Shown here in pieces: positions 9,721-60,255 of a stretch of 64,000 nt of DNA (position 1 is its first letter; every line of letters begins with the position of its first letter). The notes beneath the pieces were generated by a model. It was not told the DNA's origin and made no database searches. It saw nothing but the letters and a program-made list of their open reading frames with translations. Made by a program: the position numbers and the translations under genes. The stretch is from the NCBI GenBank assembly GCA_016218765.1, contig JACRCZ010000048.1, positions 40,779-104,778 of the forward strand. The letters run 5' to 3'. The DNA comes from Deltaproteobacteria bacterium. Lineage in GTDB: Bacteria; Myxococcota_A; Polyangia; DRWM01; JAAZOP01.

Positions 9721-10410
9721 ATGAACCTGAGCACGGAGGATGTCGCGCTCGACGCCGCCCGCCGGCGGTTCGAGGAGATCGTTCGGTCCGGGGCGATGCG
9801 GGTGTGCGAGAGGCCCGTGTACTACGCCGCCGACCGGGAGGACCGCGTCGCCGAGGGCGTCGCCCACTGCTGGGCGTGGTACCGGCACCAGTCGTTGCTG
9901 GGCAACAGCCCGGACGTCGCTCTCGTGGTCCACGTGGCCCGGCTGCGGACCACCGACCGTACGCGGCGTTTCGTCAGCGGCGACGGCACGCGCTGGGGCG
10001 AAGACGTCTACGTCCAGCAGGAGCGCGGCGTCGAGCTGCGGCGGCTCGACGGTGTGCACGACCACGACGACGGCGACGACGAGGAGCGGCACGAGGACCT
10101 GTCGCTGGGCTTGGCCCGACTCGGCGTCTCGAACCTGGAGGCGAATCTCGCCAGCTCGATCGACTTGCGCGACTGGCTCGACTCGCTCCCCTCCTCCGAC
10201 GAGGAGATGATCGAGATGCGCGGCGCTGGCCACGAACTCCACGAGATCGCCAAGGCGACCGGCCGGTCGGTGCCGACGATCTGCCGCCGCATCCGCGACC
10301 TCGGCGTCGAGCTGGCGGAGCGGGCCGGTGTGCCGGTTCCGCACGGAAGGCGCCGCGGTCGTGCCGGCGGCATCAGCGAGGTTCATGCCGACGCGGGCGG
10401 TGCGGCATGA
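9721..10410 (+). CDS. Regulator with a sigma-70 region-4-like HTH
   Basis: The C-terminal segment SDEEMIEMRGAGHELHEIAKATGRSVPTICRRIRDLG resembles sigma region 4 or a LuxR-type HTH. Confidence 0.5.
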   Translation: MNLSTEDVALDAARRRFEEIVRSGAMRVCERPVYYAADREDRVAEGVAHCWAWYRHQSLLGNSPDVALVVHVARLRTTDRTRRFVSGDGTRWGEDVYVQQERGVELRRLDGVHDHDDGDDEERHEDLSLGLARLGVSNLEANLASSIDLRDWLDSLPSSDEEMIEMRGAGHELHEIAKATGRSVPTICRRIRDLGVELAERAGVPVPHGRRRGRAGGISEVHADAGGAA

Positions 10411-15309: not shown

Positions 15310-15382
15310 TGCCCAGGGACGGAGTTGAACCGCCGACACGGGGATTTTCAGTCCCCTGCTCTACCACCTGAGCTACCTGGGC
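15310..15382 (-). tRNA. tRNA-Phe (anticodon GAA)
   Basis: The minus-strand sequence GCCCAGGTAGCTCAGGTGGTAGAGCAGGGGACTGAAAATCCCCGTGTCGGCGGTTCAACTCCGTCCCTGGGCA folds as a canonical cloverleaf with anticodon loop CTGAAAA and closely matches bacterial tRNA-Phe. CCA is not encoded. Confidence 0.85.
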
Positions 15383-15422: not shown

Positions 15423-16994
15423 TCAAGAAGGCGGGGGCTCGCGCAACGCGGCCCAGAACCCGCCGGAGTCCTCGGGACGCATCGGCTGCAGATAGCCGGC
15501 GTAGGCGGGCAACGCGGAGAGCTTCAGCGCCAGGCTGCGCAGGCCGCCCACGTCGCCCGCCCAGCCGTCGGGCTCGAAAGCCTGCACCAGCGCATCGCCG
15601 AAATCGTCCGGCGGGTAGTCCGGCCACTGCCGGTCGAACCGGTCCCGCAGGCGCAGGAGAAGATCGCGCGCGTCGGAAAGGCGGCCGAACCAGTGCTCCC
15701 ACGCGGTGCTCGCCTGCGTCTGGGAGAGCCCGCACGCGGCCACGAGCACCTGGTACGACAGGCCATCCGCCTGGCGCTCCTGCGCCAGGTGGTAGTTCGC
15801 CACGCCGGCCAGCGCCTCGTGCCCGCCCCAGCGCCAGAACATGGAGCGCTCGACGTCCGACAGCGTTCGCACGGCGTCGATCCAGTTCGCCCGCGAGTCG
15901 CGCGACGCGGGAGGCAGATGCAGGTTCACGTACGCCTTCTGCAACGCGTGCGTCAGCTCGTGGTACACGGTCTGCCGCAACGACACGTCGCGGCAGCCAC
16001 GATGCCACTCGCGCAGCGCCTCCGCTTCGTCCGGCTCCGGACCCAGGAGCTTCGCGTTGCGGCACAGCTCCGAGCCGTTCCAGACGTCCGCGCCGTGCAC
16101 GCCGAGGACGAGGCGGGAGTAGTCCTGCTCCATCGTCGATTCGTCGAGGACGAGCGGCTCGGTCGCGGTCGGATCGGCGTCCGGGTCGTTGTCCGCAAAG
16201 TACTTCATGCGTTCGGCGGTGCCGGGCAGCACGCGGTCCAACTCGGCCAGGTACTCCTCCCGGACGCCGCGGTCGCGCAGGAACGCGACGTACTCCCCGC
16301 GCGCGCGGAGGATCTCCGCCTGGACCTGGGCCGCGGCCTCCTCCGAGACGTAGACCGGCTCCCACTCCGCGGGCACGGTGAGGTCCCGACCCTTGCGCTC
16401 CTCGTCGGCGACCATGCGGTGCACCTCGCGAGCCTCGAAGTCGCCGGCGCGAAGCGGCAGGGGATCGCCCCACGCGCCGTTCCAGGCCTTCGCTTCGAGC
16501 GCGTCGAGCGCCATCGACATGAGGTGCAGCTCGTTGAGCACGACCTGGCGTGCGGTCGCCGCGGGGATGGCGTCGCGATGGAAGCGTTCGGCGCAAGAGC
16601 CGGGGCCCGAGAGGTCGGCGAGGACCGCGACGGGTGGGGGAGGCGGCGCGGCGTCCGCCGGGTCGGCGTCCGGACCGTCGCCGCTCGCCTCCGTGGCGGG
16701 GGGAGGCGTCGCGGCGTCCGGCAGCTCGGGGGCAGCGGCATCCAATGCGGCGGCGGGCGACTCCGCCGGCGATGCCGCCGGCGCGTCACGCGTCGGCGGG
16801 GACGGCGAGCCCGCCTGGCGCGGCGATCCGGACTGTCCCTTGCAGGAAAACGCGGGCAGTCCGACGGCGATGCACAGGCCGAACGCGGCGGCCGCGGCCC
16901 GTATCGTCCTTCCCCATCGGTGTCCATCGGTGGGGAGGTGGTGCGGTAGAGCGGTGGAGCGGTGGTGCGGTGAGGAGGTGGTGCGGTGGTTCAT
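15423..16994 (-). CDS. Lipoprotein zinc metallopeptidase (HExxH: HELTHA)
   Basis: The ATG at 16994 has a GGAAGGAA SD. A lipobox (LPAFSC) follows a 30-residue N-terminal region rich in His, Pro and Arg. The upstream part of ORF 15423..17675 was rejected. Confidence 0.6.
   Translation of the reverse strand: MNHRTTSSPHHRSTALPHHLPTDGHRWGRTIRAAAAAFGLCIAVGLPAFSCKGQSGSPRQAGSPSPPTRDAPAASPAESPAAALDAAAPELPDAATPPPATEASGDGPDADPADAAPPPPPVAVLADLSGPGSCAERFHRDAIPAATARQVVLNELHLMSMALDALEAKAWNGAWGDPLPLRAGDFEAREVHRMVADEERKGRDLTVPAEWEPVYVSEEAAAQVQAEILRARGEYVAFLRDRGVREEYLAELDRVLPGTAERMKYFADNDPDADPTATEPLVLDESTMEQDYSRLVLGVHGADVWNGSELCRNAKLLGPEPDEAEALREWHRGCRDVSLRQTVYHELTHALQKAYVNLHLPPASRDSRANWIDAVRTLSDVERSMFWRWGGHEALAGVANYHLAQERQADGLSYQVLVAACGLSQTQASTAWEHWFGRLSDARDLLLRLRDRFDRQWPDYPPDDFGDALVQAFEPDGWAGDVGGLRSLALKLSALPAYAGYLQPMRPEDSGGFWAALREPPPS
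16912..16990 (-). repeat. Composite short tandem repeats inside the 5' coding end of the metallopeptidase gene: 2 decamers CACCGATGG[A/G], then an 8-bp GGT[G/A]GAGC-type array
   Basis: The plus strand reads ccccatcggtgtccatcggtgggg, then ggtggtgcggtagagcggtggagcggtggtgcggtgaggaggtggtgcggtgg. Confidence 0.6.
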
Positions 16995-17087
16995 CGGTGG
17001 TTCCTTCCCCGAACCTTGACCGGTCATCGAACCGGATGCTACGCGAGACGCGGGGGACGGGCCAGCCGGCAAAGAGAGGCGGAGGCG

Positions 17088-17912: not shown

Positions 17913-18010
17913 GTCTGGCTGGTGGCTGGTAGCTGGTAGCTGGTAGCTGGTGGGGGAAGCTGGCGGCTGGTGGCGCTACCGGCTACGAGCTACGAGCTAC
18001 GAGCTGATAC
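17913..18010. repeat. Heptamer tandem arrays, (RGCTGGT)x8 then (CTACGAG)x3, between convergent genes
   Basis: The arrays are read directly from the sequence. The crotonase TAG and the ACAD TAG are both embedded in the arrays. Confidence 0.7.
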
Positions 18011-22672: not shown

Positions 22673-22899
22673 GGGTGGATCCCCTTTCCCTTCTCTTGCG
22701 CGGTCTCCCCGCTAGATACCCCGTAAGGCGGTTGGATGTCTCGTGCAAACGGGGGGGGGAGGAGGGTCGTTGGTTCTTGGTGGGTCGGCCGGGTCGAGTC
22801 GTTGGTCCGGAGGTGCGGGGGAGTTGGACGATGGGCGGGATGTCCCGTATAATTCGCGCGTTGTCCCGGCGGGCGTCGGGAGGATGGAGGGCAGGGGCC

Positions 22900-25800
22900 A
22901 TGCGTGCACGCGTTTCGCGGTCGACTGCGCTTGGTGTGTTCTGGGTTTGCGCGGCGGTGACGGCGGTCGGGTGCGCGACGGGAACGGGGTCGCCGGCGGA
23001 CGCGGAGGCGGGGGAAGCGGTGGAGGGCGGCGACGGGGGGGAGGAGATCGAGGGAGGGGAGGAGGAGGGGGACGGCGACGGGGGCGGGGGCGAGATCGAA
23101 GGGGAGACGGACGCCGGGGACGAGGGGGAGGCGGGGGACGACGCGGACGTGGGCGGGGAGACCGGGTGCTCGAGCGTGGAGGAGTGCGACGACGGGATCG
23201 AGTGCACGGTGGACTCGTGCGACCCGCGGGACGGGATGTGCAAGCACGAGGCGTTGCACATGGCGTGCGACGACGGCAATCCGTGTTCGGGTGCGGAGAC
23301 GTGCGACGTGGTGCTGGGCTGCATGCCCGGGACGCCGGTGGACTGTTCGGACGAGTTCGACTGCACGGTGGACGCGTGCGACGCGTTGACGGCGGAGTGT
23401 CGTCACACGCCGAGCCACGCGTTGTGCACGGAGCCGCAGATCTGCGATCCGGCGCGGGGCGGGTGTGCGGATCCGCCGACGTGCGCGAGCGACGTCGACT
23501 GCGACGACGACGACGACTGCAACGGTGTGGAGACGTGCGGGCCGGGGTTGTTCTGCGTTCCGGGTGCGGCGGTGGTGTGCGACGACGGGGTGAGCTGCAC
23601 GGTGGACTCGTGCGACCCTGCGGGCGGAGCCTGCTCGTTCACGCCCAACGACGCGGCGTGCGCGGACGCGGACCTGTGCAACGGGGACGAGGCGTGCGAC
23701 CCGGCGGCGGGGTGCGGGCCCGGGGTGCCGGTGGACTGCGACGACGGGGTCGGCTGCACGGAGGATTCGTGCACGCCGGCGACGGGGCGGTGCCGCAACG
23801 CGGCGGACGACGCGCGTTGCGACGACGGGGTGCTGTGCAACGGCCAGGAGATCTGCGACGTGCGGTCGGGCTGTGCGGCGGGGACGCCGCCGGCGTGCAG
23901 CGACGGCATCGCGTGCACGGACGACCGGTGCAATCCCGGGACGGACCGGTGCGTGAACACGCCGAACGACGCGCCGTGTTCGGACGGGTCGTTCTGCAAC
24001 GGGGCCGAGGTCTGTTCGGCGGTGACGGGCTGCGGGGCGGGGACGGCGCCGGTGTGCAGCGACGGCATCGCGTGCACGACGGACGCGTGCGACCCGGCGG
24101 CCGGGGGCGGGGCGGGGGCGTGCGTCTCGACGGCGCCGGATCGCGACCGTGACACGTATGCGGACGCGGCGTGCACGGGGACGGACTGCGACGACCTGGA
24201 CGCGGCGGTGCATCCCGGTGCGGCGGAGAGCTGCAACGCGATCGACGACGACTGCGAGGGCGGGACGGACGAGACGTTCGCGTGCGTGCGCGGGACGACG
24301 ATGTCGTGCAGCACGAGCTGCGGCTCGGCCGGCACGCAGCTCTGCTCGAACACGTGCGCCTGGGGCGCGTGCACGCCGCCGGCGGAGACGTGCAACGGGT
24401 TCGACGACGACTGCCTGGCGGGCTGCGACAACGGCTGGGAGTGCTGCCGGGGCGAGAGGCGCTCGCAGAGCTGCGGGTTCTGCGGGACGCAGGAGCGTTC
24501 GTGCGGCGCGACGTGCGCGTGGGGCTCGTGGGGGGCGTGCACGGGGGCGGGCGAGTGCGCGGCGGGGGGTACGGAGACGCGGGCGTGCACCTGCGGCGGC
24601 ACGGAGTCGCGGACGTGCGGCTCGGGCTGCGCCTGGGGCGCGTGGAGCGGGTGTGCGGCGGGGGCGTGCACGCCGGGGGCGACGCAGTCCTGCACGACTT
24701 CGTGCGGCACGACGGGCCTGCAGACGTGCTCGGCCACCTGCTCGTGGGGTGCCTGCACGCCGCCCGCGGAGGTCTGCAACGGCACGGACGACGACTGCGA
24801 CCTGACGTGCGACGACGGGGTGGGGACGTGCTGCCGGGGTGCGACGGAGACGGCGAGCTGCGGGGCGTGCGCCACGCAGACGCGCACGTGCAACGCGAGC
24901 TGCGGCTGGGGCGCGTGGGGCTCGTGCACGGGCGGCGGGGTCTGCACGCCGGCGGCGACGGAGACGCGGGCGTGCACCTGCGGCGGGACGGAGTCGCGCA
25001 CGTGCCTGGGCACGTGCCTGTGGGGTGCGTGGAGCGGCTGTGCCGCGGGGGCGTGCACGCCGGGGTCGAGCCGCTCGTGTGCGACGGGGTGCGGGTCGAG
25101 CGGCACGGAGCTGTGCACGGCGAGCTGCACGTGGAGCGGGACGTGCGTTCCGCCGGCGGAGACGTGCAACGGGGCGGACGACGACTGCGTGGCGGGTTGC
25201 GACAACGGGGTGGGCGAGTGCTGTCGGGGCGGAACGCAGAGCCAGAGCTGCGGCTTCTGCGGGACGCAGACGCGCTCGTGCGGGGCGACGTGCGCCTGGG
25301 CCGCGTGGGGCTCGTGCACGGGCGGCGGCGTGTGCGCGGCGGGCTCGACGGAGACGCGCGCGTGCGCGTGCGGCGGGACGGAGTCGCGCACGTGCAGTCC
25401 GTCGTGCGCGTGGGGGGCGTGGAGCGGGTGCGGAGCGGGCTCGTGCACGCCGGGCACGACGGGCTCCTGCACGACGTCGTGCCTGTCGACGGGCACGCGG
25501 CTGTGCCAGGCCGACTGCACGTGGGGCCCGTGCAATCCGCCGTCGGAGTCGTGCAACGGGGCCGACGACGACTGCGACCTGCTGTGCGACGACGGGATGG
25601 GCACGTGCTGCCGCGGCGCGACGGAGTCGCAGGCCTGCGGGTACTGCAGCACCGGGACGCAGTCGCGGAGCTGCGGAGCGACCTGCACGTGGGGCGGGTG
25701 GAGCGCGTGCGTGGGCGGCGGCGCGTGCTCCCCGGCCTCGTCGCAGGCGTGCAGCAACTCGTGCGGCGCGGCCGGCACCCAGACGTGCTCGGCCGGCTGT

Positions 25801-26643
25801 GCGTGGGGCACCTGCTGCGCGGCGGCGGAGGTGTGCGGCAACGCGTGCGACGACGACTGCGACGGCTCGACGAACGAAGGGTGCTCGTGCACGGGCGACA
25901 CGTGCGCCTGCCCGCTGACGGTGGCAGGCGCGGGCGGGACGTACACGGGGACGACGTCCGGGATGGCGAACAACACGTCGGGCACGTGCGCTTCGTCGGC
26001 GTGTCCCGACGTGGTGTACTCGTTCACGCCGTCCACGACGGGCACGTGGGCGATCGACACGAACGGCTCGGCCTTCGACACGGTGCTGTACGTGCACTCG
26101 GGCGGCTGCCCGGGCACGCAGCTCGCGTGCGACGACGACAGCGGGAGCGGGAGCCAGTCGCGGGTGCTGGTGAGCCTGACGGCGGGAACGACGTACTACG
26201 TCTTTGTCGACGGCTACAACGGCCTCTTCGGCTGCTCGTCGGGGGCCTACACGCTGCACGTCTACCTGAGCGTGAGCGGCGGAGACACGTGCGCGGCGGC
26301 GCCGGCGATCTCGGGGGCGGGGAGCTGGGCCGGCGACACCTGCGCGCTGGCTTCCGACTACGCCGGCTCCTGTGCCGGCAGCGGCGGCAACGACGCGGTC
26401 TTCGCCTGGACGGCGCCGTCGGCGGGGACGTGGAACTTCGACCTCCAGTACTCGGCCTTCGACACCTCGCTCTACGTGCGCTCGGCCACATGCACGGGCA
26501 CGGAGATCGACTGCGACGACGACTACTGGGGCGTGGCCGGCGCTTCGTACTTCAGCGCGAGCCTCTCGGCCGGCCTGTACTACGTCTTCGTCGACGGGTA
26601 CGGCAGTGGGGACTGCGGGGCGTACCAGCTGGATATTTATTAG
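22900..26643 (+). CDS. Very large exported lipoprotein made of Myxococcus-type cysteine-rich repeats and MopE-like metal-binding motifs, with two C-terminal PPC-like (pre-peptidase C-terminal) domains
   Basis: The signal peptide/lipobox is MRARVSRSTALGVFWVCAAVTAVGC. An acidic linker follows. There are many C..D..C..C repeats and CxxDDDC motifs, and the C-terminus carries SAFDT.LYV...C.......D modules. Start chosen at an internal ATG with an upstream GGAGG-like RBS. Confidence 0.7.
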   Translation: MRARVSRSTALGVFWVCAAVTAVGCATGTGSPADAEAGEAVEGGDGGEEIEGGEEEGDGDGGGGEIEGETDAGDEGEAGDDADVGGETGCSSVEECDDGIECTVDSCDPRDGMCKHEALHMACDDGNPCSGAETCDVVLGCMPGTPVDCSDEFDCTVDACDALTAECRHTPSHALCTEPQICDPARGGCADPPTCASDVDCDDDDDCNGVETCGPGLFCVPGAAVVCDDGVSCTVDSCDPAGGACSFTPNDAACADADLCNGDEACDPAAGCGPGVPVDCDDGVGCTEDSCTPATGRCRNAADDARCDDGVLCNGQEICDVRSGCAAGTPPACSDGIACTDDRCNPGTDRCVNTPNDAPCSDGSFCNGAEVCSAVTGCGAGTAPVCSDGIACTTDACDPAAGGGAGACVSTAPDRDRDTYADAACTGTDCDDLDAAVHPGAAESCNAIDDDCEGGTDETFACVRGTTMSCSTSCGSAGTQLCSNTCAWGACTPPAETCNGFDDDCLAGCDNGWECCRGERRSQSCGFCGTQERSCGATCAWGSWGACTGAGECAAGGTETRACTCGGTESRTCGSGCAWGAWSGCAAGACTPGATQSCTTSCGTTGLQTCSATCSWGACTPPAEVCNGTDDDCDLTCDDGVGTCCRGATETASCGACATQTRTCNASCGWGAWGSCTGGGVCTPAATETRACTCGGTESRTCLGTCLWGAWSGCAAGACTPGSSRSCATGCGSSGTELCTASCTWSGTCVPPAETCNGADDDCVAGCDNGVGECCRGGTQSQSCGFCGTQTRSCGATCAWAAWGSCTGGGVCAAGSTETRACACGGTESRTCSPSCAWGAWSGCGAGSCTPGTTGSCTTSCLSTGTRLCQADCTWGPCNPPSESCNGADDDCDLLCDDGMGTCCRGATESQACGYCSTGTQSRSCGATCTWGGWSACVGGGACSPASSQACSNSCGAAGTQTCSAGCAWGTCCAAAEVCGNACDDDCDGSTNEGCSCTGDTCACPLTVAGAGGTYTGTTSGMANNTSGTCASSACPDVVYSFTPSTTGTWAIDTNGSAFDTVLYVHSGGCPGTQLACDDDSGSGSQSRVLVSLTAGTTYYVFVDGYNGLFGCSSGAYTLHVYLSVSGGDTCAAAPAISGAGSWAGDTCALASDYAGSCAGSGGNDAVFAWTAPSAGTWNFDLQYSAFDTSLYVRSATCTGTEIDCDDDYWGVAGASYFSASLSAGLYYVFVDGYGSGDCGAYQLDIY

Positions 26644-26690
26644 AGCGGTGGAGCGGGGGAGCGGCAGGGGGGAAGAGCGGGGGGGATTGG
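26643..26690. repeat. GGT[G/A]GAGC-family repeat copy plus G-tracts
   Basis: The sequence is GAGCGGTGGAGCGGGGGAGCGGCAGGGGGGAAGAGCGGGGGGG, directly after the stop of the Cys-rich repeat gene. Confidence 0.5.
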
Positions 26691-28899: not shown

Positions 28900-29090
28900 C
28901 TTACACCTCGTCGGCGATGGACACCGCCCGCGGGCGGTGCTTGGTCGAATGGTATCCCACCCTTTGCGTCCTTTGCGGTTCTTTGCGCCCTTTGCGCGAG
29001 CTTCGGGACCATGGATCATGTTCTCCCCGCAGCCTTCAAATTGGGATTGACACGTCCGTCCGTATCGTTTATATACGTAGTTGTGGATGG

Positions 29091-31091: not shown

Positions 31092-31143
31092 TTTCGCGCA
31101 AGGGACGCGAAGAGGCAAGGCACGCCAAGAGGGGGGCGGCGGT

Positions 31144-34360: not shown

Positions 34361-34395
34361 GCGCTCCACCGCTCCACCGCTCCACCGCTCCACCC
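34361..34395. repeat. (GCTCCACC)x4 tandem octamer array upstream of the PHP lipoprotein gene
   Basis: The sequence is gcgctccaccgctccaccgctccaccgctccaccc. It lies about 60 nt upstream of the ATG at 34300 on the minus strand. Confidence 0.65.
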
Positions 34396-37351: not shown

Positions 37352-37459
37352 GAGGGCGCGTATAGCACGGAACGAGGCGTGCGGACGAGCGGACGGGGGG
37401 GAAGCGAGCGGACGAGACGACCGCTCGGCCGCTCGGCCGCTCGACCGCTCGCCCGTTGG

Positions 37460-38530: not shown

Positions 38531-38674
38531 CGGCGACCTTTCTTGGCGCGGAGGCTACAACGGGGCGATCCGGGCGGCAACGAGCGCGCGCCGTGGGTCA
38601 CGGACGGATGGGGGAATGGAAAATGCAAAAATGCAATGAAAAATGAAAAACGACTCGGCGGGGGAGGCGCGGCG

Positions 38675-40129: not shown

Positions 40130-40350
40130 GGTCGGACCCCTTCCCTCCCCGGCGGCGGGGACGGGAGGGATCATAGCGCCAATTGCGAGGGAGATCGTGC
40201 AGAATGCGGTGGTGGGGGGCGCGTCCAAGGCCGGCACGAAGGCCGCGGGGAGGAGCGCGAAAGCGGATTTCCCTTCGACTTCGCTCAGGGCAGGCGCGCA
40301 GCGGCCGCAAAGGACCGCAAAGGACGCAACGGGGGGGAGGAGCGGGGACG

Positions 40351-42693: not shown

Positions 42694-42723
42694 GGAGCGG
42701 TGGAGCGGTAGAGCGGTAGAGCG
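42694..42723. repeat. GGT[G/A]GAGC-family tandem repeat upstream of an exported-protein gene
   Basis: The sequence is GGAGCGGTGGAGCGGTAGAGCGGTAGAGCG. It starts 3 nt after the stop at 42691 and lies about 55 nt upstream of the ATG at 42779. Confidence 0.65.
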
Positions 42724-42778
42724 TCAGGGCGGGCGGTCGGCTTGATCGGCCTCGCTCCGGTTGGTAGCGTCACGAACC

Positions 42779-47630: not shown

Positions 47631-47763
47631 CGGGGTTCCTCCGTCCGGCAAGCGTACCGGGCGGGGGGATTCCGCGCAATGAAGGCCGCGGGGTAAGGGC
47701 GAGCCGGAGTTCGCGCAAAGGGCGCAAAGGGACGCAAAGGGCGCAAAGAGGGGGGGCGGGGCT

Positions 47764-52738: not shown

Positions 52739-53656
52739 TCAGGGACCGGGGACCGCGAGAGGCGGCCGGCCGACCTGCGGCTGCGGGCGGGAGCGTCCGA
52801 CGCCGGAGCCCGGGATGACGAAGGCGACGTCTTCGACGAGCGAGACGGCGCCGTCGTTCTCGATGCGCAGGCGCAGTCGTTGGAGGGCGTCGGAGGAGGA
52901 GAAGCCGCTGCTCGAGCCGCGCAGGCGAGCGGCGTCGTCGTCCGGGGCGAAGTCGCTGAGCCAGATCACGGCGTCGAAGCCGCCGTCGCGCGGGTCGGCC
53001 CGGGACTCGACGATGTCCGCGCCGTCCCGGCGCAGGTTCTCGCGGGCGGCGGCCGCCGCCTCGACGGAGTCGGTTTTCGCGGCGAGGATCGCCTGGAGGT
53101 CGTCCTCGCCGGGAACGAGTCCGAGGCCGGGGCGGAGGTCGCCGGCGATCAGCCGAGCGAGCGCCTGCGCCTCCTCCGTCGTCTCCGGGCCGGCCGACGC
53201 GGCCGCGAGAAACCGACTCCACCCGTCGAGACGAAGCGGCTCGTCCCAGGGCTCGACCGGGGCCAGCTCGATCGCGGGCAGCTCCTGCGGCGTCAGGAGG
53301 AAGCGGGCATCGCCGGCCGCGCCGACCAGGGCGTCGTCGGCCTCGGAGCTGCCGCCGCAGGTCTCGCCGGTGGAGCAGCACGAGCCCATGTCCACGGCGT
53401 ACCAGACCTCGCCGTCGCCCAGCGTGCGGACGCGCTCGACGCGCGGGCGGCGGTTTTCCCAGTCCAGCTTTCGCGACACGAAGCGACCGATGCGGCGGCC
53501 CGCCGCGGTGCAGGCGTCGGGGCCGTCGTCGGCGGCGTCCTGCGCGAAGGCCGCGCCTCCGAACCCGGCCCGGCCAAGGGCGACGAAGGCGACGGCCGCC
53601 GTTCCGTGCGGGCGCGCGCGGGTGGCCGCTTGCCGGACCTCGCGGTTCGGCCTCAT
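52739..53656 (-). CDS. Hypothetical exported protein
   Basis: An internal Met of ORF 52739..55507 gives a 305-aa protein. Its start overlaps the stop of the upstream FG-GAP gene (ATGA). Confidence 0.45.
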   Translation of the reverse strand: MRPNREVRQAATRARPHGTAAVAFVALGRAGFGGAAFAQDAADDGPDACTAAGRRIGRFVSRKLDWENRRPRVERVRTLGDGEVWYAVDMGSCCSTGETCGGSSEADDALVGAAGDARFLLTPQELPAIELAPVEPWDEPLRLDGWSRFLAAASAGPETTEEAQALARLIAGDLRPGLGLVPGEDDLQAILAAKTDSVEAAAAARENLRRDGADIVESRADPRDGGFDAVIWLSDFAPDDDAARLRGSSSGFSSSDALQRLRLRIENDGAVSLVEDVAFVIPGSGVGRSRPQPQVGRPPLAVPGP

Positions 53657-56082
53657 CCGATGATCTCGCACTGGACGCCGGAGAGGAGGCCGACGTTGTT
53701 GGCTTCGAGGCACTCGTCCTCGCCGGCGTCGGGGTCGGCGACGACGTAGACGTCGATCGGGGCGGAGCCCAGCGTGGCGTCGCAGGAGACGAGGGCGCAG
53801 GCTCCGACCTCGATCGTGGTGGCGACCGTCGCCCGGCACAGCTCGGTACCGTCGACGCTCCCGGTGCGAAAGCTGACGACGGTGCCGGCGCCGACGGGGA
53901 GGAGGCCGCGGTTGCAGACGCGGGCCTGGAGGGTGCCGACGCCGCTGGTGCAGGGGAGGCGGACGGGTCCGGCATCTCCCGAGGACGTGAGGTCCGGGAC
54001 GCCGAGTGCATCCAGCTCGCCCTGGACGTTCTGGCGGAAGTTGTTCAGCTCGGGGTCGCGCCAGTTCAGCGCGACGGCGGAGCTGCGGGGGAGCTCGCCG
54101 CGGTTGCCGACATGGGTGACGGCGTAGGCGTGCTGGCTCCAGACGGGACGGGAGGCGGCCCAGCGGTCCAGGACGTCGCGCAGGACGACGATGCCGTGGT
54201 TGACGGCGAAGGAGGCGGCGGGGAAGAGCGGATCGGCCGCGGGGCAGCCGAGGGATCCGGCGTAGTCGTTGACGGCGGAGACGATCTCGGCGTGGAAGTC
54301 GCCGTCCACGTCCACGATCACGGGGTTCTCGTAGGTGGTGCCGGAGGAGCGAGCGGCGCTGAAGACGACGGTCCCGGTCGAGCCGTCGTAGATGCGCAGG
54401 AAACACTCGTCGGCGTAGACGGCCTCGGCGCTGCCGTTGGCGTCGAAGTCGAAGACGGACGAGCCGGTGACGTTGGAGGAGAGGTCCTGGGACGGCTGGG
54501 TCCAGAGGATGCCGTCGGTGCGGCCGGAGGCGCAGGTGCCGATGGCGCCCGAGGGGGTGCAGTCGAGGTCGAAGACGACGTAGTTGGCGCCGCCGGCCGA
54601 GGCGAACTCGCGGCGGCCGTCGCCGTCGAAGTCGGCGATGGTGGGCAGGCCGCCGCTGCCGCCGCCCGGGAGCGCGACCGGTCCGAAGACGACGGCTCCC
54701 TCGATCGTCTGGACCCGGGCCTGCCCGGAGGAGACGACGGCGACCTCGGCGCGGTCCGCATCGCCGAACGAGGCGAGGGGGAAGACGCCGAAGTCGGCGA
54801 CGGCGACCTGTCCCGCGGCGAGGCTGCCGGGAACGAAGTAGGGCTCCGCGACGAGGTCGCCGGCGGTGGAGTCCCACGCGTACAGCGCGTTGCCGTAGAC
54901 CAGCTCCATCGTGCCGTCGTCGTCGACGTCGGCGACGACGGGGACGACGCCGCGGTGGTAGGCGGGGTAGCCGAAGGTGCTCGATCGGATGCAGCCGTCG
55001 GCGGAGTAGACGGTGGCACCGTAGATGATCTCGGGAGCGCCGTCGTCGTCGAGGTCGTGGAGCGACGGGCCGTTCCACTGGTCGGAGCCGCCGGTGGTGT
55101 CGGGGGTGCGCCCGCCGGAGGCGTCGCAGGTTGCGGAGCGCCACCAGCGGGCGAACGTCGCGGTGGTCTCGTCGTAGCGGAAGGCGACGAGGCCGCCGCC
55201 GTGGGCGGCGGCGACGATCTCGGCGCGGCCGTCGGCGTCGATGTCGCCGAGGGCGACGGAGGCGGGGGCCATGGTGGCGTCCTCGGCGGCGGGGAAGCTC
55301 CACTGCTGGCTGCAATCGCTGCCGTCGATGACGCGCAGGACGCCGGGGTTGCGGTAGGAGCCGGAGGTGGGGAACGGGGTGAAGACGATGGACGGGGCGA
55401 GGGTGGCGGGGTCGTCGTCGAAGTCGAAGTCGACGACGACGGGGGTGCTCATGACGTGGACCCAGTCCGGCGAGGCGTCGCCGGCCGGCGGGCCGGTCCA
55501 GCGGCACTGCACGTCGGGGACGATGGTCTCGATGTCGATGGGCCGGGAGCAGTCATCGTCGAACTGGTGGTCCGGGGGGACGCCGTAGGGCACGCAGAAA
55601 CCCGCTTCGCACCAGGAATCGGACCAGCAATCGTCGCCGGTGGTGCACTCGCCCAGGTCGGCGATGCAGGCATTCTCGCGGCAGCGCTCGAGCCCGTCGG
55701 TGCAGCAGGCGGATGCGCAGGCGGTGGTCCCGGTGGGGCAGGAGGAGTCGGGCGCGTCGGCGTCCGCGTCCGCGTCGGAGATGATGTCCGATTCGGCGAC
55801 GTCGACGTCCGTCGCGGTGTCACCGCCGTCCTCCGCGATCGAGTCGGCGGCGGCATCGAGGGCACGGCAGGCGCCGTCGATGCAGAGGAGTCCCGGGGGG
55901 CAATCGTCCTGGTTCTCGCAGGACTGGAGGGAGGGGGAGGAGGAGCTGCAGGAGAGGGAGAGGAGGAGGAGGGCGCAGAGAAAAAGGGAAACCACAGATG
56001 GACACAGATGAACACAGATGGGGGGGAGGGAGGGGGAAGAAGCCACCGCTGGACACCGATGGGCACCGATGGGGGGGCGCAT
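53653..56082 (-). CDS. Exported FG-GAP/VCBS-repeat (integrin-alpha-like beta-propeller) protein
   Basis: DxDxDG-type repeats ADVDDDGTMELVYG, ADFDGDGRREFASA, FDFDANGSAEAVYA and VDVDGDFHAEIVSA are present. The ATG at 56082 lies within the decamer repeats. An alternative GTG at 55995 gives the signal peptide MVSLFLCALLLLSLSC. Confidence 0.6.
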   Translation of the reverse strand: MRPPIGAHRCPAVASSPSLPPICVHLCPSVVSLFLCALLLLSLSCSSSSPSLQSCENQDDCPPGLLCIDGACRALDAAADSIAEDGGDTATDVDVAESDIISDADADADAPDSSCPTGTTACASACCTDGLERCRENACIADLGECTTGDDCWSDSWCEAGFCVPYGVPPDHQFDDDCSRPIDIETIVPDVQCRWTGPPAGDASPDWVHVMSTPVVVDFDFDDDPATLAPSIVFTPFPTSGSYRNPGVLRVIDGSDCSQQWSFPAAEDATMAPASVALGDIDADGRAEIVAAAHGGGLVAFRYDETTATFARWWRSATCDASGGRTPDTTGGSDQWNGPSLHDLDDDGAPEIIYGATVYSADGCIRSSTFGYPAYHRGVVPVVADVDDDGTMELVYGNALYAWDSTAGDLVAEPYFVPGSLAAGQVAVADFGVFPLASFGDADRAEVAVVSSGQARVQTIEGAVVFGPVALPGGGSGGLPTIADFDGDGRREFASAGGANYVVFDLDCTPSGAIGTCASGRTDGILWTQPSQDLSSNVTGSSVFDFDANGSAEAVYADECFLRIYDGSTGTVVFSAARSSGTTYENPVIVDVDGDFHAEIVSAVNDYAGSLGCPAADPLFPAASFAVNHGIVVLRDVLDRWAASRPVWSQHAYAVTHVGNRGELPRSSAVALNWRDPELNNFRQNVQGELDALGVPDLTSSGDAGPVRLPCTSGVGTLQARVCNRGLLPVGAGTVVSFRTGSVDGTELCRATVATTIEVGACALVSCDATLGSAPIDVYVVADPDAGEDECLEANNVGLLSGVQCEIIG
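55993..56077 (+). repeat. Decamer tandem repeats in a divergent intergenic region (three CACAGATG[GR]N units, a G-tract, then two CACCGATGGG units)
   Basis: The sequence is CACAGATGGA CACAGATGAA CACAGATGGG GGGGAGGGAGGGGGAAGAAGCCACCGCTGGA CACCGATGGG CACCGATGGG. Confidence 0.7.
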
Positions 56083-56168: not shown

Positions 56169-57677
56169 ATGGAATCGCACGCTCGCGCGTTCGTGTGGTG
56201 TTCCGATCGCAGATCAGGGGTCTGGGGGCGGGTGCTCGCGGCCCTCGCGGTGCTCGGCCTGCTCGGCGGGGGGCTGGCGGGCGGCGGCTGCGACGATGGT
56301 CCGGCGGGCGCCGGGGCGAGCCGGTATCTGCGGCTGGCGCCGGACGTGACGGTGGCCGGGGTCTCGGTGTTCCAGTCCGTCGAGGTGCCGTTGTGGGCCG
56401 ACGGGGAGGAGCGGACGGAGCTGGCCGCGGTCGTGGCGGACGGGAAGGCGGCGACGATCGTGGTGCGGCTGGAGCCGGGCCCGGAGTTCGACGGCCGGCT
56501 GGTCACGGTGGCGCTGGCGGTCGACCTCGGGGCGGGAATGCGCTGGCAGGAGACGTCGCTGGTGCCGGACGGGGCGTCGTCCTACGATCGTCCGGAGTCG
56601 CTGGCGGAGTTCGAGCTGACGGCGGAGCAGGTGACGGGAGCGTTGTCGATCGCGGTGGCAGTGCTGGATCCGGTCGCGCCGTCGGTGCCGGTGGGGACGC
56701 CGCACGCGGCGCGGTATCCCGCGGACGGCTCGACGCGCGCGGTGGAGCTGCGGAGCGCGCGCGACCCGGCGCGTCTGGTGCTGATCCCGATCCGCTACGC
56801 GCGGGACGGGAACGAGTACTTCCCCGACATGAGCGCCGAGCAGATCGAGCTGTACCGGGAGACGCTGCTGGCGGCGTATCCGGCGGTGGCGTGGGACATC
56901 GCGATCCACGAGGAGGTGTACTGGGACCGGCCGCCGAGCTGGAGCGGGTTCAACTTCGGGGCGCTCAACGCGTACATCTCGGACTTGAAGGCGGCGGAGG
57001 ACGACATTCCGCAGAGCCACTACTACTCGCTGGTATCGCCGGACGACTCGTTCGCGGCCTACTGCACGCCGATGTGCGTGGCGGGGGAGAGCTACCTGGT
57101 GACGGAGCCGTCGGCGTCGAACGTGCGGGTGGGCGCGGGGCTGGGATTCACGGGCGCGGAGTCGGCGTGGACGATGGTGCACGAGCTGGGCCACGTCTTC
57201 GGGCGCGGGCATTCGGGCTGCAGCGTGCCGCGGGACGACCGTGCGTTCCCGCATGCCGGAGGCGTGATCGGGGTGTGGGGCCGGGATCCGCGGGACGGCC
57301 GGTACTGGCCGCCCGGGACGGCGGACTTCATGGGCTACTGCACGCCGCCGTGGGTCTCGGACTACACATGGAACCGGCTCTTCGACCGGCTGGTGGATCT
57401 GGCGGCGCTGGGGGCGAAGGCGGCGGGGGACCGCTATCACACGCTGCACGTCGACTTCGAGGAGGGCGTGGCCGCGTGGGGGGCGGAGACGCGCGCCGAG
57501 CGACTGGATCGCGCCGAGCGCATCGCGGCGCGCTTCGCGGGGGCGGAGCCCGGACTGCCGGCCGAGCTGCCGATCCTCTGGCAGAGCGACTTCCGGCACG
57601 CATCGATCCTGGTGCCGGCCGAGCGCGCGGCGGAGCTGCGGAGCGTGGCGGGGATCGCGGCGGTGCCGGTGCCGTAG
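56169..57677 (+). CDS. Exported metzincin-like zinc metallopeptidase lipoprotein
   Basis: HELGHVFGRGH fits HExxHxxGxxH. The signal/lipobox is VLAALAVLGLLGGGLAGGGC. GGAGGA lies 9 nt upstream of the ATG. Confidence 0.65.
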   Translation: MESHARAFVWCSDRRSGVWGRVLAALAVLGLLGGGLAGGGCDDGPAGAGASRYLRLAPDVTVAGVSVFQSVEVPLWADGEERTELAAVVADGKAATIVVRLEPGPEFDGRLVTVALAVDLGAGMRWQETSLVPDGASSYDRPESLAEFELTAEQVTGALSIAVAVLDPVAPSVPVGTPHAARYPADGSTRAVELRSARDPARLVLIPIRYARDGNEYFPDMSAEQIELYRETLLAAYPAVAWDIAIHEEVYWDRPPSWSGFNFGALNAYISDLKAAEDDIPQSHYYSLVSPDDSFAAYCTPMCVAGESYLVTEPSASNVRVGAGLGFTGAESAWTMVHELGHVFGRGHSGCSVPRDDRAFPHAGGVIGVWGRDPRDGRYWPPGTADFMGYCTPPWVSDYTWNRLFDRLVDLAALGAKAAGDRYHTLHVDFEEGVAAWGAETRAERLDRAERIAARFAGAEPGLPAELPILWQSDFRHASILVPAERAAELRSVAGIAAVPVP

Positions 57678-57796
57678 GGGGCAGACGGGGCGGGAGTTTC
57701 GCGCAGAGGCGCAGGGAAGCAGAGGCGCAGAGCAGCACAGGGGCGGGACAGGGACGAACTTGCGCGGCGAGCGGGCCGCGGTACCATGGCGGGGCG

Positions 57797-59257: not shown

Positions 59258-59274
59258 GGGGGGAAGAAGAAAAC

Positions 59275-59304
59275 CACAGATGGACACCGATGGACACAGA
59301 TAGG
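59275..59304 (+). repeat. Decamer tandem repeats, three units, overlapping the FGE-family gene start
   Basis: The sequence is CACAGATGGA CACCGATGGA CACAGATAGG. It is preceded by an A-rich tract (GGGGGAAGAAGAAAAC) and followed by GGGGGAAGGGAAGAGGGGGGAGGG. Confidence 0.7.
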
Positions 59305-60255
59305 GGGAAGGGAAGAGGGGGGAGGGACCGGGCAGTGGCGCGCGTGGCGGTGGTGTCGGTGGGGATCGGACTGGGGTTTGCCGCGTGCAGCGTGTTGACG
59401 GATTTCTCGCCGATCGATGGGGGGGAGGAGGGAGGGACGGACGAGGGGGGGGTGGAGGACGTCGGGGGCGAGGGGGGGATGTGGTGCCACGAGGGGCCGG
59501 ATCCATGTCCGGCGGGGACGAGCTACGTGCCGTGCGGGCCGGTGTTGCTGGGCAGCGACACGGGGGAAGGGGACGGCGACGAGGAGCCGGAGCACGTGGT
59601 CGACGTGTCGGCGTACTGCATGGACACGGACGAGGTGACGAACGGGGGTTTTGCGGAGTGTGTCGCGGCCGGGGGTTGCACGGCGCCGCACGCGGACGGC
59701 TCGGCGACGCGGGCGTCGTACTATTCGCATCCGAGCTACGCGGCGTATCCGGTGATCGCGGTCGACCGCGACCAGGCGGAGGCGTACTGCCGTTGGGTGG
59801 GGAAGCGGCTGCCGACGGAGGCGGAGTGGGAGAAGGCGGCGCGCGGGGGATGCGAGATTGCGGCGCCGTCGGGCTGCGGGTCGGAGGACGAGAGGACGTA
59901 CCCGTGGGGCGAGGACGAGCCGACGTGCACGTTGGCGAACTTCGCGGGGTGCGCGGGGGACACGGACCGGGGCGGGGCGCGTCCCGCGGGTGCCAGTCCG
60001 TACGGGGTGCGGGACCTGGCGGGCAACGTGCAGGAGTGGGTGGCGGACTGGTACGCGGCGACGATCTACACGGCGTGCGGCGCGGGCGGCTGCGTCGACC
60101 CCGGGGGGCCGCCGACGGGCACGGAGCGGGTCTTTCGCGGGGGCGCGTGGGAGTCCGCGGTCGCGTACCTGCGCAACGCCAACCGTTTCCGGCAGGTTCC
60201 CGGGTATTCGGACGAACATCTGGGCTTCCGCTGCGTGGCGCCGGTGCGCCCCTAG
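59290..60255 (+). CDS. Formylglycine-generating-enzyme (FGE-sulfatase) family lipoprotein
   Basis: The C-terminal motifs RLPTEAEWEKAARGG, RVFRGGAWES and GFRCV are FGE-sulfatase hallmarks. The ATG lies inside the decamer repeat. Confidence 0.7.
   Translation: MDTDRGKGRGGRDRAVARVAVVSVGIGLGFAACSVLTDFSPIDGGEEGGTDEGGVEDVGGEGGMWCHEGPDPCPAGTSYVPCGPVLLGSDTGEGDGDEEPEHVVDVSAYCMDTDEVTNGGFAECVAAGGCTAPHADGSATRASYYSHPSYAAYPVIAVDRDQAEAYCRWVGKRLPTEAEWEKAARGGCEIAAPSGCGSEDERTYPWGEDEPTCTLANFAGCAGDTDRGGARPAGASPYGVRDLAGNVQEWVADWYAATIYTACGAGGCVDPGGPPTGTERVFRGGAWESAVAYLRNANRFRQVPGYSDEHLGFRCVAPVRP

Follow-up and report, generated by a model that had tools for sequence, protein, structure and literature searches.

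Three sites in the stretch of deltaproteobacterial DNA analysed here (contig JACRCZ010000048.1; 64,000 nt, 71% G+C; hereafter the window) carry tandem arrays of a 10-bp unit at the 5' ends of lipoprotein genes. Site 1 belongs to a gene for an HExxH lipoprotein, site 2 lies where a gene for an FG-GAP/VCBS lipoprotein meets a divergent 502-aa gene, and site 3 belongs to an FGE-sulfatase-family lipoprotein gene. The motif CACMGATGR matched the window exactly 11 times, where 1.89 matches were expected and none of 100 shuffles attained 11. A tandem dimer pattern with up to three mismatches matched 7 times against 0.2 expected, and Tandem Repeats Finder (TRF) called the arrays at period 10. The sequence and these counts bear out the decamer tandems that a first-pass annotation had reported at the three sites, but not its copy number of two to five: every array is a three-unit module, and site 2 is two such modules with a polypurine spacer. 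All modules consist of a purine-rich tract, the trinucleotide AAC (once AGC) and three tandem 10-bp units with the core C-R-C-N-G-A-T. The purine-rich flanks, which end in A-A/G-C, are GAAGAAGAAAAC at site 3, AAAGGGAAAC and GGAAGAAGC at sites 2a and 2b, and GGGGAAGGAAC at site 1. Only site 3 has a third unit of the GATAR form, with which the ATG of unit 2 reads M-(N/D)-T-D-(K/E/R); the third units of sites 1, 2a and 2b end in GATGGG, unlike the GATAR of the wider family. No sigma-70-like promoter was found near the arrays of the window. Reading frames were assigned by position-specific G+C. Homologs of the FG-GAP protein place the window in Myxococcota/Polyangia, among Sandaracinaceae-like MAGs. 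The nearest genome found was GCA_016218815.1, in which contig L121 is syntenic with the window from the FG-GAP gene to a shikimate-dehydrogenase gene. The proteins of L121 are 82-90% identical to those of the window, and 4-fold sites are 71.5% identical (n = 1121).

At site 3, the units CACAGATGGA CACCGATGGA CACAGATAGG are preceded by a purine-rich tract whose last bases are the AAC junction (GGGGGGAAGAAGAAAAC; 59259-59274, plus strand), and this flank matches the logo of the wider family. This array was confirmed at the position first given for it (59275-59304, plus strand) by motif matches, and it has an ortholog in L121, where the flank has kept its composition and not its exact sequence. 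Unit 2 provides an ATG (59290-59292) in the reading frame of the FGE-sulfatase-family lipoprotein gene (MDTDRGKGRGGRDRAVARVAVVSVGIGLGFAAC...; 59290-60255, plus strand; Pfam PF03781, E 1.6e-44). Read from this ATG, the protein begins with MDTDR in the window and with MDTDK in L121, and the stored gene call of L121 also begins the ortholog there. The polypurine tract from the array to the signal peptide (GGGGAAGGGAAGAGGGGGGAGGGACC...; 59305-59334, plus strand) is either translated from the decamer ATG or provides a GGGAGGG Shine-Dalgarno sequence for a GTG at 59335. Since this GTG is GCG in L121, the decamer ATG is left as the only upstream start in that genome: no other in-frame ATG, GTG or TTG precedes the conserved arginine of the signal peptide. 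The gaps between the two genomes in the spacer from array to signal peptide sum to 21 nt, a multiple of three, and thus the reading frame is kept.

Site 2 lies on the plus strand and consists of AAC plus array 2a (CACAGATGGA CACAGATGAA CACAGATGGG; 55990-56022, array 55993-56022), a polypurine spacer (GGGGAGGGAGGGGGAAGAAGC; 56023-56043) that is also the 5' flank of the second array, and array 2b (CACCGCTGGA CACCGATGGG CACCGATGGG; 56044-56073), which was identified by motif matches. Array 2a has an orthologous array in L121, while the counterpart of 2b is only degenerate and is accompanied by about 230 bp of other sequence. Together, 2a, the spacer and 2b span 81 nt, a multiple of three. The FG-GAP/VCBS lipoprotein gene (53653-56082, minus strand) was assigned by Pfam. 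Its start is probably the ATG at 56082-56080, which would place both arrays in the n-region of the signal peptide. A strong GAAGGAGG precedes this ATG by 5 nt on the minus strand, and from there the open reading frame (ORF) reads both arrays antisense (MRPPIGAHRCPAVASSPSLPPICVHLCPSVVSLFLCALLLLSLSC), 2a as PPICVHLCPSV and 2b as PPIGAHRCPAV, and then reaches the lipobox. The Shine-Dalgarno/ATGCGC block is kept in L121, and from this block on no stop codon interrupts the FG-GAP frame across the array in either genome. The arrays had been described as lying between divergent genes; they are probably inside the FG-GAP ORF as well, in antisense. The divergent gene encodes a lipoprotein-like protein of 502 aa (56169-57677, plus strand), and the arrays lie about 95-175 nt upstream of it in sense orientation, against about 300 nt in L121. 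Pfam supported the earlier FGE and FG-GAP labels and gave no match for the 502-aa protein, which leaves the label "metzincin" without Pfam support.

In a more distant FG-GAP ortholog (77% identity; contig L202, JGI metagenome), another type of array lies antisense in the same N-terminal region, so a different array family sits at the same signal-peptide place. That array (CGCAGAGA/CGCAAAGA/CGCCAAGG, positions 2085-2115 of L202) is inside the N-terminal coding sequence (..PLASLRLCASFCLLLG..) and reads ..PLASLRLCASF... In L121, an in-frame ORF upstream of the FG-GAP gene (9763-10003) opens with a transmembrane-like segment followed by RRRR (MRGLPGALLASATLLAVLGTFAVVVLRRRR), about 50 residues ahead of the array-encoded peptide and the lipobox.

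Site 1 had been described as tandem units at 16912-16935. Decamers do lie there, but they are part of one minus-strand module that is split by octamers. The AAC junction and unit 1 (CACCGATGAA) occupy 16990-17002 (unit 16999-16990). About 57 nt of tandem octamers (seven CCACCGCW; TRF period 8, 7.9 copies) follow in frame at 16933-16989 and encode HRTTSSPHHRSTALPHHLP, and units 2 and 3 (CACCGATGGA CACCGATGGG; 16913-16932) are translated as TDGHRW. The gene (MNHRTTSS...GRTIRAAAAAFGLCIAVGLPAFSC...; 15423-16994, minus strand) encodes the HExxH motif and has no match in Pfam. Its annotated start codon is the ATG of unit 1 (16994-16992), with GGGGAAGG just upstream, and the ORF holds no other start codon between this ATG and the signal peptide GRTIRAAAAAFGLCIAVGLPAFSC. 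The NCBI record (P0121, HY907_06100; 523 aa, 100% identical) also starts at the decamer ATG. The N-termini of five orthologs (P0122-P0126, 58-67% identity) are short and of the usual lipoprotein kind, for example MRRTLRLVAVGLSLVVVIPSC, and thus about 26 residues (MNHRTTSSPHHRSTALPHHLPTDGHRW) of the protein appear to be array-encoded. A tRNA gene (15310-15382, minus strand; Rfam 66.7 bits) lies directly downstream of the HExxH lipoprotein gene.

Conservation of the arrays was compared at sites 2 and 3 in the one relative; the matches to the site 1 protein included no ortholog from this genome. Arrays 2a and 3 occur at orthologous places in L121, both as CACCGATGGA CACCGATGGA CACCGATA(G/A)G. All 36 core positions (CAC.GAT) are identical between the orthologous arrays, and all eight differences fall at unit positions 4, 8 and 9, which are the positions that vary across the family. 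If the sites were neutral and independent, 36 unchanged core positions would have a probability of about 0.715^36, or about 6e-6. The intergenic DNA beside the arrays shows many substitutions and indels between the two genomes. The conservation of the cores therefore points to purifying selection or concerted evolution and not to free decay. Five of the eight differences are C-to-A at the same unit position, which hints at conversion from other copies.

To place these arrays in a wider context, one genome per species was scanned with CACMGATGRRCACMGATGR, giving at least 120 loci; both the abundance and the taxonomic range are lower bounds. About 140 chance matches would be expected over the whole collection, as estimated from the degeneracy of the pattern and the size of the collection, but the matches share an extended consensus and a three-unit length and are thus not chance. 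The consensus is an A-rich tract, T/G-T/G-A-A/G-C, CACAGATGAA, CACAGATGAA and CACAGAT-R-R, and the family logo has the A/purine-rich tract at positions -14 to -6 and A-A/G-C at -3 to -1. Exactly three units were counted in 99 of 189 arrays and four in only three. The listed loci come from at least eight phyla. Acidobacteriota, Planctomycetota, Verrucomicrobiota, Cyanobacteria, Chloroflexota and several proteobacterial groups are among the carriers, as is the archaeon Methanosarcina; the cyanobacterial carriers include isolates and the complete genome of Scytonema NIES-4073. Fifty viral contigs carry the array too, and some of these have composite arrays of several families, in sense orientation, ahead of one gene after another. 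We found no description of the repeat, or of arrays around GxxExxY genes, in the literature searched, which was mostly from non-subscription journals.

The arrangement of the arrays was similar across these genomes. About half of the arrays elsewhere form convergent inverted pairs (some 50 pairs among 196 arrays, 10-470 bp apart; very few pairs are divergent), and in most cases the palindrome reaches a few bases beyond the arms. The other arrays are lone arms, and the copies in the window are of this kind. Most arrays are intergenic (88 of 125) in DNA where called ORFs cover 83% of the bases, and those scored as inside ORFs sit at ORF extremities. Lone arrays have a weak orientation bias across phyla, with 26 pointing toward a gene start and 18 away from one.

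Several further arrangements were seen among these loci. Four viral-classed contigs (L206, L208 and L209 from IMG/VR sample 3300037461, and L241) carry composite multi-family arrays before genes, in the order CACGAAGG x3, TTTAAATCTATC, CACCGATG x3 and CGAATGGGA x3; judged by eye from the printed flanks, these contigs seem purine-rich on one strand. At five loci (L012, L089, L026 from Scytonema, L080 and L120), the decamer array is nested in a larger palindrome, TAGACYTCTTGCA...TGCAAGAGGTCTA; the sources of the other four include an uncultured bacterium. Resemblances of the unit to a DnaA box, an integration host factor (IHF) site, CsrA (GGA) and C/D box motifs, an extracytoplasmic function (ECF) sigma factor -35 element (GGAAC) and a MuA site were judged superficial by eye.

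What the inverted pairs enclose depends on their spacing. Every pair with arms 359-464 bp apart encloses a gene of about 120 aa that belongs to the GxxExxY/PDDEXK_3 family (TIGR04256, E 1e-27 to 1e-30; PF13366, E 1e-33 to 1e-42). The start codon of the enclosed gene is the decamer ATG, and its protein begins with MNTD or MDTD: unit 2 gives the ATG and unit 3 the T-D codons, and therefore the third unit reads GATAA or GATAG. We had also considered a rule by which the array provides a stop and a start in all three frames, but stops were present in all units in only 28 of 142 cases and an ATG in all units in 35 of 142. On these counts it was dropped as a general rule; the D-K codons of the cassette gene account better for the GATAA of the third unit. 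An N-terminus of the form M[ND]TD[KEN] was found in about 60% of the 120 nearest GxxExxY clusters (MDTDK or MNTDK in 38 of the 120), and with a start at the decamer ATG the FGE protein of the window (MDTDR) and the ortholog (MDTDK) would share it. Two other genes, neither of the GxxExxY family, also start at a decamer ATG (L089, about 1808-2200, and L091, on the minus strand near the start of the locus). By reading of the sequence, one is XisI-like (MNTDGISDF...) and the other RhuM-like (MKPQMDTDEHR...), and neither matched NCBIfam.

The association was also seen when loci were collected by protein and not by the DNA motif. Eighty GxxExxY loci were drawn from metagenomes in this way, and 71 of them had enough flank. 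For 55 of the 71 genes, a 16-mer in the 120 nt upstream recurred in inverted form, with up to two mismatches, in the 120 nt downstream; after shuffling this held for none of 71. The units vary between cassettes (CGCAGATGAA, CACAGATGAA, CGCCGATGCA, CACGGATGAA, CGCAAATGAA, CGCAGAACA, CAGGATGAA, CACGGAGAG and others), yet the two arms of one cassette match each other. Proteins from cassettes with the same array type are more alike than those with different types (identity 0.615 versus 0.568; attained in 0 of 1000 permutations). The arm mismatches in 49 cassettes comprised 23 G.U, 20 A.C and 41 others. This lack of a wobble bias favours recognition at the DNA level, or recent copying, over an RNA stem.

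The enclosed gene belongs to a large family, with at least 7,549 clusters of PF13366/TIGR04256 at E <1e-10 in one search. PDDEXK_3 has been described as a family of unknown function with multiple lateral transfers between Bacteria and Archaea (PMC3424549). A sequence search of solved structures with GxxExxY gave no match, and a fold search returned only generic PD-(D/E)XK neighbours.

The decamers of the window thus belong to a cross-phylum repeat family whose full form brackets PDDEXK_3 genes, and the window arrays are lone arms at the 5' ends of lipoprotein genes; two of these arms are retained in the relative. We suggest, with a probability of roughly 0.6, that they are lone end arrays of this repeat that were co-opted by the lipoprotein genes. 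The full cassette, of about 0.45 kb, consists of a purine-rich tract, AAC, three C-R-C-N-G-A-T-R-R-N units, the nuclease gene of about 120 aa, which starts at the decamer ATG and has the N-terminus M-N/D-T-D-K/E, and the same array inverted. Gene-less versions, with inverted arms 10-140 bp apart, and lone arms far outnumber the full cassettes and occupy intergenic DNA. In the window, such arms may have been put to use to start the FGE gene (at the unit 2 ATG) and the HExxH gene (at the unit 1 ATG) and, in antisense, as part of the n-region of the FG-GAP protein. We have moderate confidence that host genes captured the 5' end of the cassette as a start codon, an N-terminal extension or signal-peptide sequence. 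The first-pass annotation had offered a MITE-like dispersed repeat captured into N-terminal coding sequence as an alternative, and in view of the HExxH start and the MDTDR/MDTDK termini of the FGE proteins this was essentially right. "MITE" is an analogy, though, as no target-site duplication was found and the window copies are under apparent constraint.

How the arrays spread is a more speculative matter. The cassette nuclease might recognise the three decamers, phased on one face of the helix, as its site, and this recognition might underlie the spread and homogenisation of the arrays and the conservation of their cores; our confidence in this step is low. The 10-bp phasing had been taken earlier as a sign of a protein-binding array, which is still plausible, with a different protein as the binder. 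It is also possible, though we put it forward tentatively, that the GxxExxY/PDDEXK_3 genes are the cargo of an undescribed class of selfish cassettes that cross phyla and domains and seed gene-less and lone-arm derivatives. The 5' arm of such a cassette would be a portable translation-initiation module (leader, ATG and M-N/D-T-D-K codons) that host genes could capture. Its nuclease would bind the phased decamers or an extruded cruciform, and homing-like gene conversion could explain both the spread and the unchanged orthologous cores.

Several points weigh against co-option of lone cassette arms. In the lineage studied, the cognate nuclease is putative, as no GxxExxY gene was found in the window, L008 or L121, and a search for reverse-complement copies up to 800 bp away from the window arrays found none. 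In 42 elements there was neither a target-site duplication nor another visible mark of transposition; their flanks extend the palindrome and show no direct repeats outside it. Both orthologous arrays are conserved and not polymorphic, so there is no sign of mobility here, and use of the ATG would account for constraint on one unit and not on three. The start-codon assignments are computational: the FGE gene of the window has the alternative GTG at 59335 with a good GGGAGGG Shine-Dalgarno sequence, and NCBI starts the FG-GAP ortholog of L121 at a GTG on the edge of the array. As for the wider family, the listed loci of the genome scan are not an unbiased sample, the gene calls behind the positional statistics are crude, and the 80 metagenome loci were selected for closest similarity to seed proteins from CACAGATG-flanked genes.

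Among known systems, dispersed palindromic repeats with a gene-bearing relative, such as repetitive extragenic palindromic (REP) sequences with REP-associated tyrosine transposases (RAYTs) and miniature inverted-repeat transposable elements (MITEs) with insertion sequences, are already known as a kind. Unusual here are the arms of tandem decamers, the PD-(D/E)XK cargo, the sequence conservation across phyla and the donation of start codons. Like MITEs with an autonomous partner, the arrays are short, non-coding, multi-copy and intergenic, with inverted arms, a longer gene-bearing version and lone ends. Unlike MITEs, they showed no target-site duplication, their cargo is a 120-aa PD-(D/E)XK nuclease and not a known transposase, their arms are three tandem 10-mers shared across phyla and domains, and the window copies are conserved at orthologous sites. 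Terminal inverted repeats are present in about 50 elements of other genomes and absent from the window copies. REP sequences, or bacterial interspersed mosaic elements (BIMEs), with their RAYTs are similar in being intergenic palindromes, often within operons, with one small bracketed gene and repeats that outnumber genes. However, REPs are species-specific, are not built of tandem decamers and go with HUH/Y1 RAYTs, whereas here the gene is PDDEXK_3 and the units are conserved from Archaea to Cyanobacteria.

Other systems share single features. The intervening sequences of 23S rRNA (S23p/four-helix-bundle, PF05635), which are known from similar phyla, also have a small ORF within inverted repeats and many paralogs in some genomes, but the cassettes lie outside rRNA and encode another protein fold. 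The ends of Tn7, Mu and IS21 carry several direct copies of a short site per inverted end, suggesting cooperative binding by one protein; their sites are about 20-22 bp and their transposases large and multi-domain, and here there is no sign of transposition. In ToxIN, a type III toxin-antitoxin system, short tandem repeats also lie immediately upstream of a small nuclease gene, but the repeats of ToxI, each of about 36 nt, function as RNA and lack an inverted copy downstream, and ToxN is not a PD-(D/E)XK protein. OmpR/PhoB boxes are direct repeats with a spacing of about one helical turn, as here, where it is exactly 10 bp; three units, overlap with start codons, spread across phyla and an inverted-arm architecture set the arrays apart from them.

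The alternative that survives best is that the arrays are functionless relics: lone arms left over from an extinct palindromic element, now decaying and tolerated in intergenic DNA and in the n-regions of signal peptides, with ATGs that ORF callers happened to pick up. This would fit the missing inverted partner and the missing nearby nuclease gene, as well as the degenerate state of array 2b in the relative. Moreover, a 10-bp spacing puts three successive ATGs into the three different frames, which makes one in-frame ATG inevitable. ORF callers could readily take it up, because the arrays offer ATGs in more than one frame and the GC-rich variant lacks stop codons. Decay without function, however, is contradicted by the 36 of 36 unchanged cores beside 4-fold sites at 71.5% identity (about 6e-6) and by the divergence of the neighbouring intergenic DNA. 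The length also stays at exactly three units, and L121 has no other start upstream of the conserved arginine. We therefore regard a purely neutral relic as contradicted by the core conservation, and relics in general as an unlikely account, with a probability that is small though not negligible.

A role as RNA is somewhat less probable still. The inverted arms would then form a long stem in the transcript, like those of REP/BIME elements or 23S rRNA intervening sequences, which would control mRNA stability or RNase III processing, and lone arms would be unstructured translation leaders. That the arms match within a cassette while the units differ between cassettes would fit a stem, and 23S rRNA intervening sequences are an established precedent for an ORF flanked by inverted repeats. 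The leader at site 3 is unusually unstructured, folding worse than 196 of 200 shuffles (z +1.88), and the arrays of viral contigs lie in sense orientation 0-30 nt before start codons. On the other hand, the arm mismatches have no wobble bias, and the units are conserved in sequence across phyla, a feature for which a bare stem would have no need. The window copies lack a partner arm, and none of them folds better than shuffled sequence. When the window and eight loci were searched with Rfam covariance models, only a tRNA reached the gathering score and no family matched the arrays.

The first-pass annotation had favoured OmpR/PhoB-type response-regulator half-sites, with the three exported-protein genes forming one regulon. 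The one-turn helical spacing of the direct repeats and the position of the three sites close to the 5' ends of genes would suit such a regulator, and the reverse complement of the array contains CTGT, as does the Pho box of Escherichia coli (CTGTCAT-N4-CTGTCAY). But the units number three and not two, and their period is 10 and not 11; the arrays overlap start codons or coding sequence instead of promoter -35 regions, and their distance to the divergent gene is not conserved. Many phyla, and Methanosarcina too, have identical arrays with the same flanks, for the most part in inverted pairs or bracketing the nuclease gene, with at most a weak orientation bias toward gene starts across phyla (26 versus 18), and a dozen other array families of the window lie in intergenic regions of all kinds, including convergent ones. 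This reading fails on location, unit number, taxonomic spread and inverted-arm architecture and is very improbable. Phase variation, in which 10-bp slippage in 5' coding sequence would toggle the lipoproteins, is hardly credible. A unit of 10 bp would shift the frame, and genes for surface or exported proteins carry the arrays at their 5' ends, but the copy number is fixed (99 of 189 with exactly three, three with four, and three in both orthologous genomes), the units are non-identical, which disfavours slippage, and an ATG in each frame would buffer a 10-bp shift.

The decamers are one family among several and are not private to the three genes, as TRF called at least 12 other short arrays in the window. 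Their periods are 7-10 bp, and they lie in intergenic regions between divergent, tandem and convergent genes. Their units include GCGCAAAGG, GCGCAGAG, GAGCGGTG, GCTGGTA/GCTACGA and CCGCTCGG. The GCGCAGAG octamers (57701-57741, plus strand; TRF) lie between the 502-aa gene and an abhydrolase gene, which are co-directional, and the array is kept at the orthologous place in L121 (8113-8141); units similar to GCGCAGAG flank GxxExxY genes elsewhere. GCGCAAAGG occurs in 3.9 copies in a divergent intergenic region (47713-47748, plus strand; TRF), and the same unit type is present at 28961-28996 (reverse complement) and 40305-40329. Arms of the CGCAAA and CGCAGAA types flank GxxExxY genes at four metagenome loci (L129, L140, L145 and L146), and arrays of the GCGCAAAGG/CCGCAAAGGA type are probably sister families of the decamers.

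Some features of the window concern these other arrays and the sequence around them. The 9-10-mers of the GCGCAAAGG/CCGCAAAGGA type occur in 3-4 copies each at 28961-28996, 40305-40329, 47713-47748 and 31098-31132, all intergenic. At 17916-18005, between convergent enoyl-CoA hydratase and acyl-CoA dehydrogenase genes, about eight GCTGGTR heptamers are followed by 3.4 copies of GCTACGA; the two runs are imperfect reverse complements (6 of 7 positions) and thus inverted tandem-repeat arms, which resemble the array pairs of other phyla but have 7-bp units. Another inverted pair, at 37375-37455 in a tandem intergenic region, has octamers of the GCGGACGA/GAGCGG type followed by CCGCTCGG x4.4. The GAGCGGTG/CGCTCCAC octamers, at 26643-26664, 34362-34394 (100% identical copies) and 42695-42732, share their unit type with the octamers that interrupt the array at site 1. 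An AT-rich island (AATGGAAAATGCAAAAATGCAATGAAAAATGAAAAA) lies at 38615-38650 between two minus-strand genes of this 71% G+C genome. A very large ORF for a cysteine-rich repeat protein (22675-26643) contains 387-bp tandem repeats (3.5 copies); third-position G+C scores the opposite strand as coding too, so its strand is ambiguous by composition.

For the organism, there is no evidence of a shared regulon of the three hydrolase genes, and a false lead is thereby removed. If the arrays are indeed co-opted cassette arms, the very large function-unknown family PF13366/TIGR04256 would gain a genomic context and a candidate DNA partner. It would also account for many unusual N-termini (MNTDK..., MDTDK...) in the annotations of Acidobacteriota, Planctomycetota, Verrucomicrobiota, Cyanobacteria and Myxococcota, and for peptides of spurious ORFs there (..ICVHLW.., ..SLRLCAS..). 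The family would then be a dispersed repeat that donates start codons and signal-peptide extensions to host genes, which would bear on the annotation of gene starts and on the prediction of export signals.

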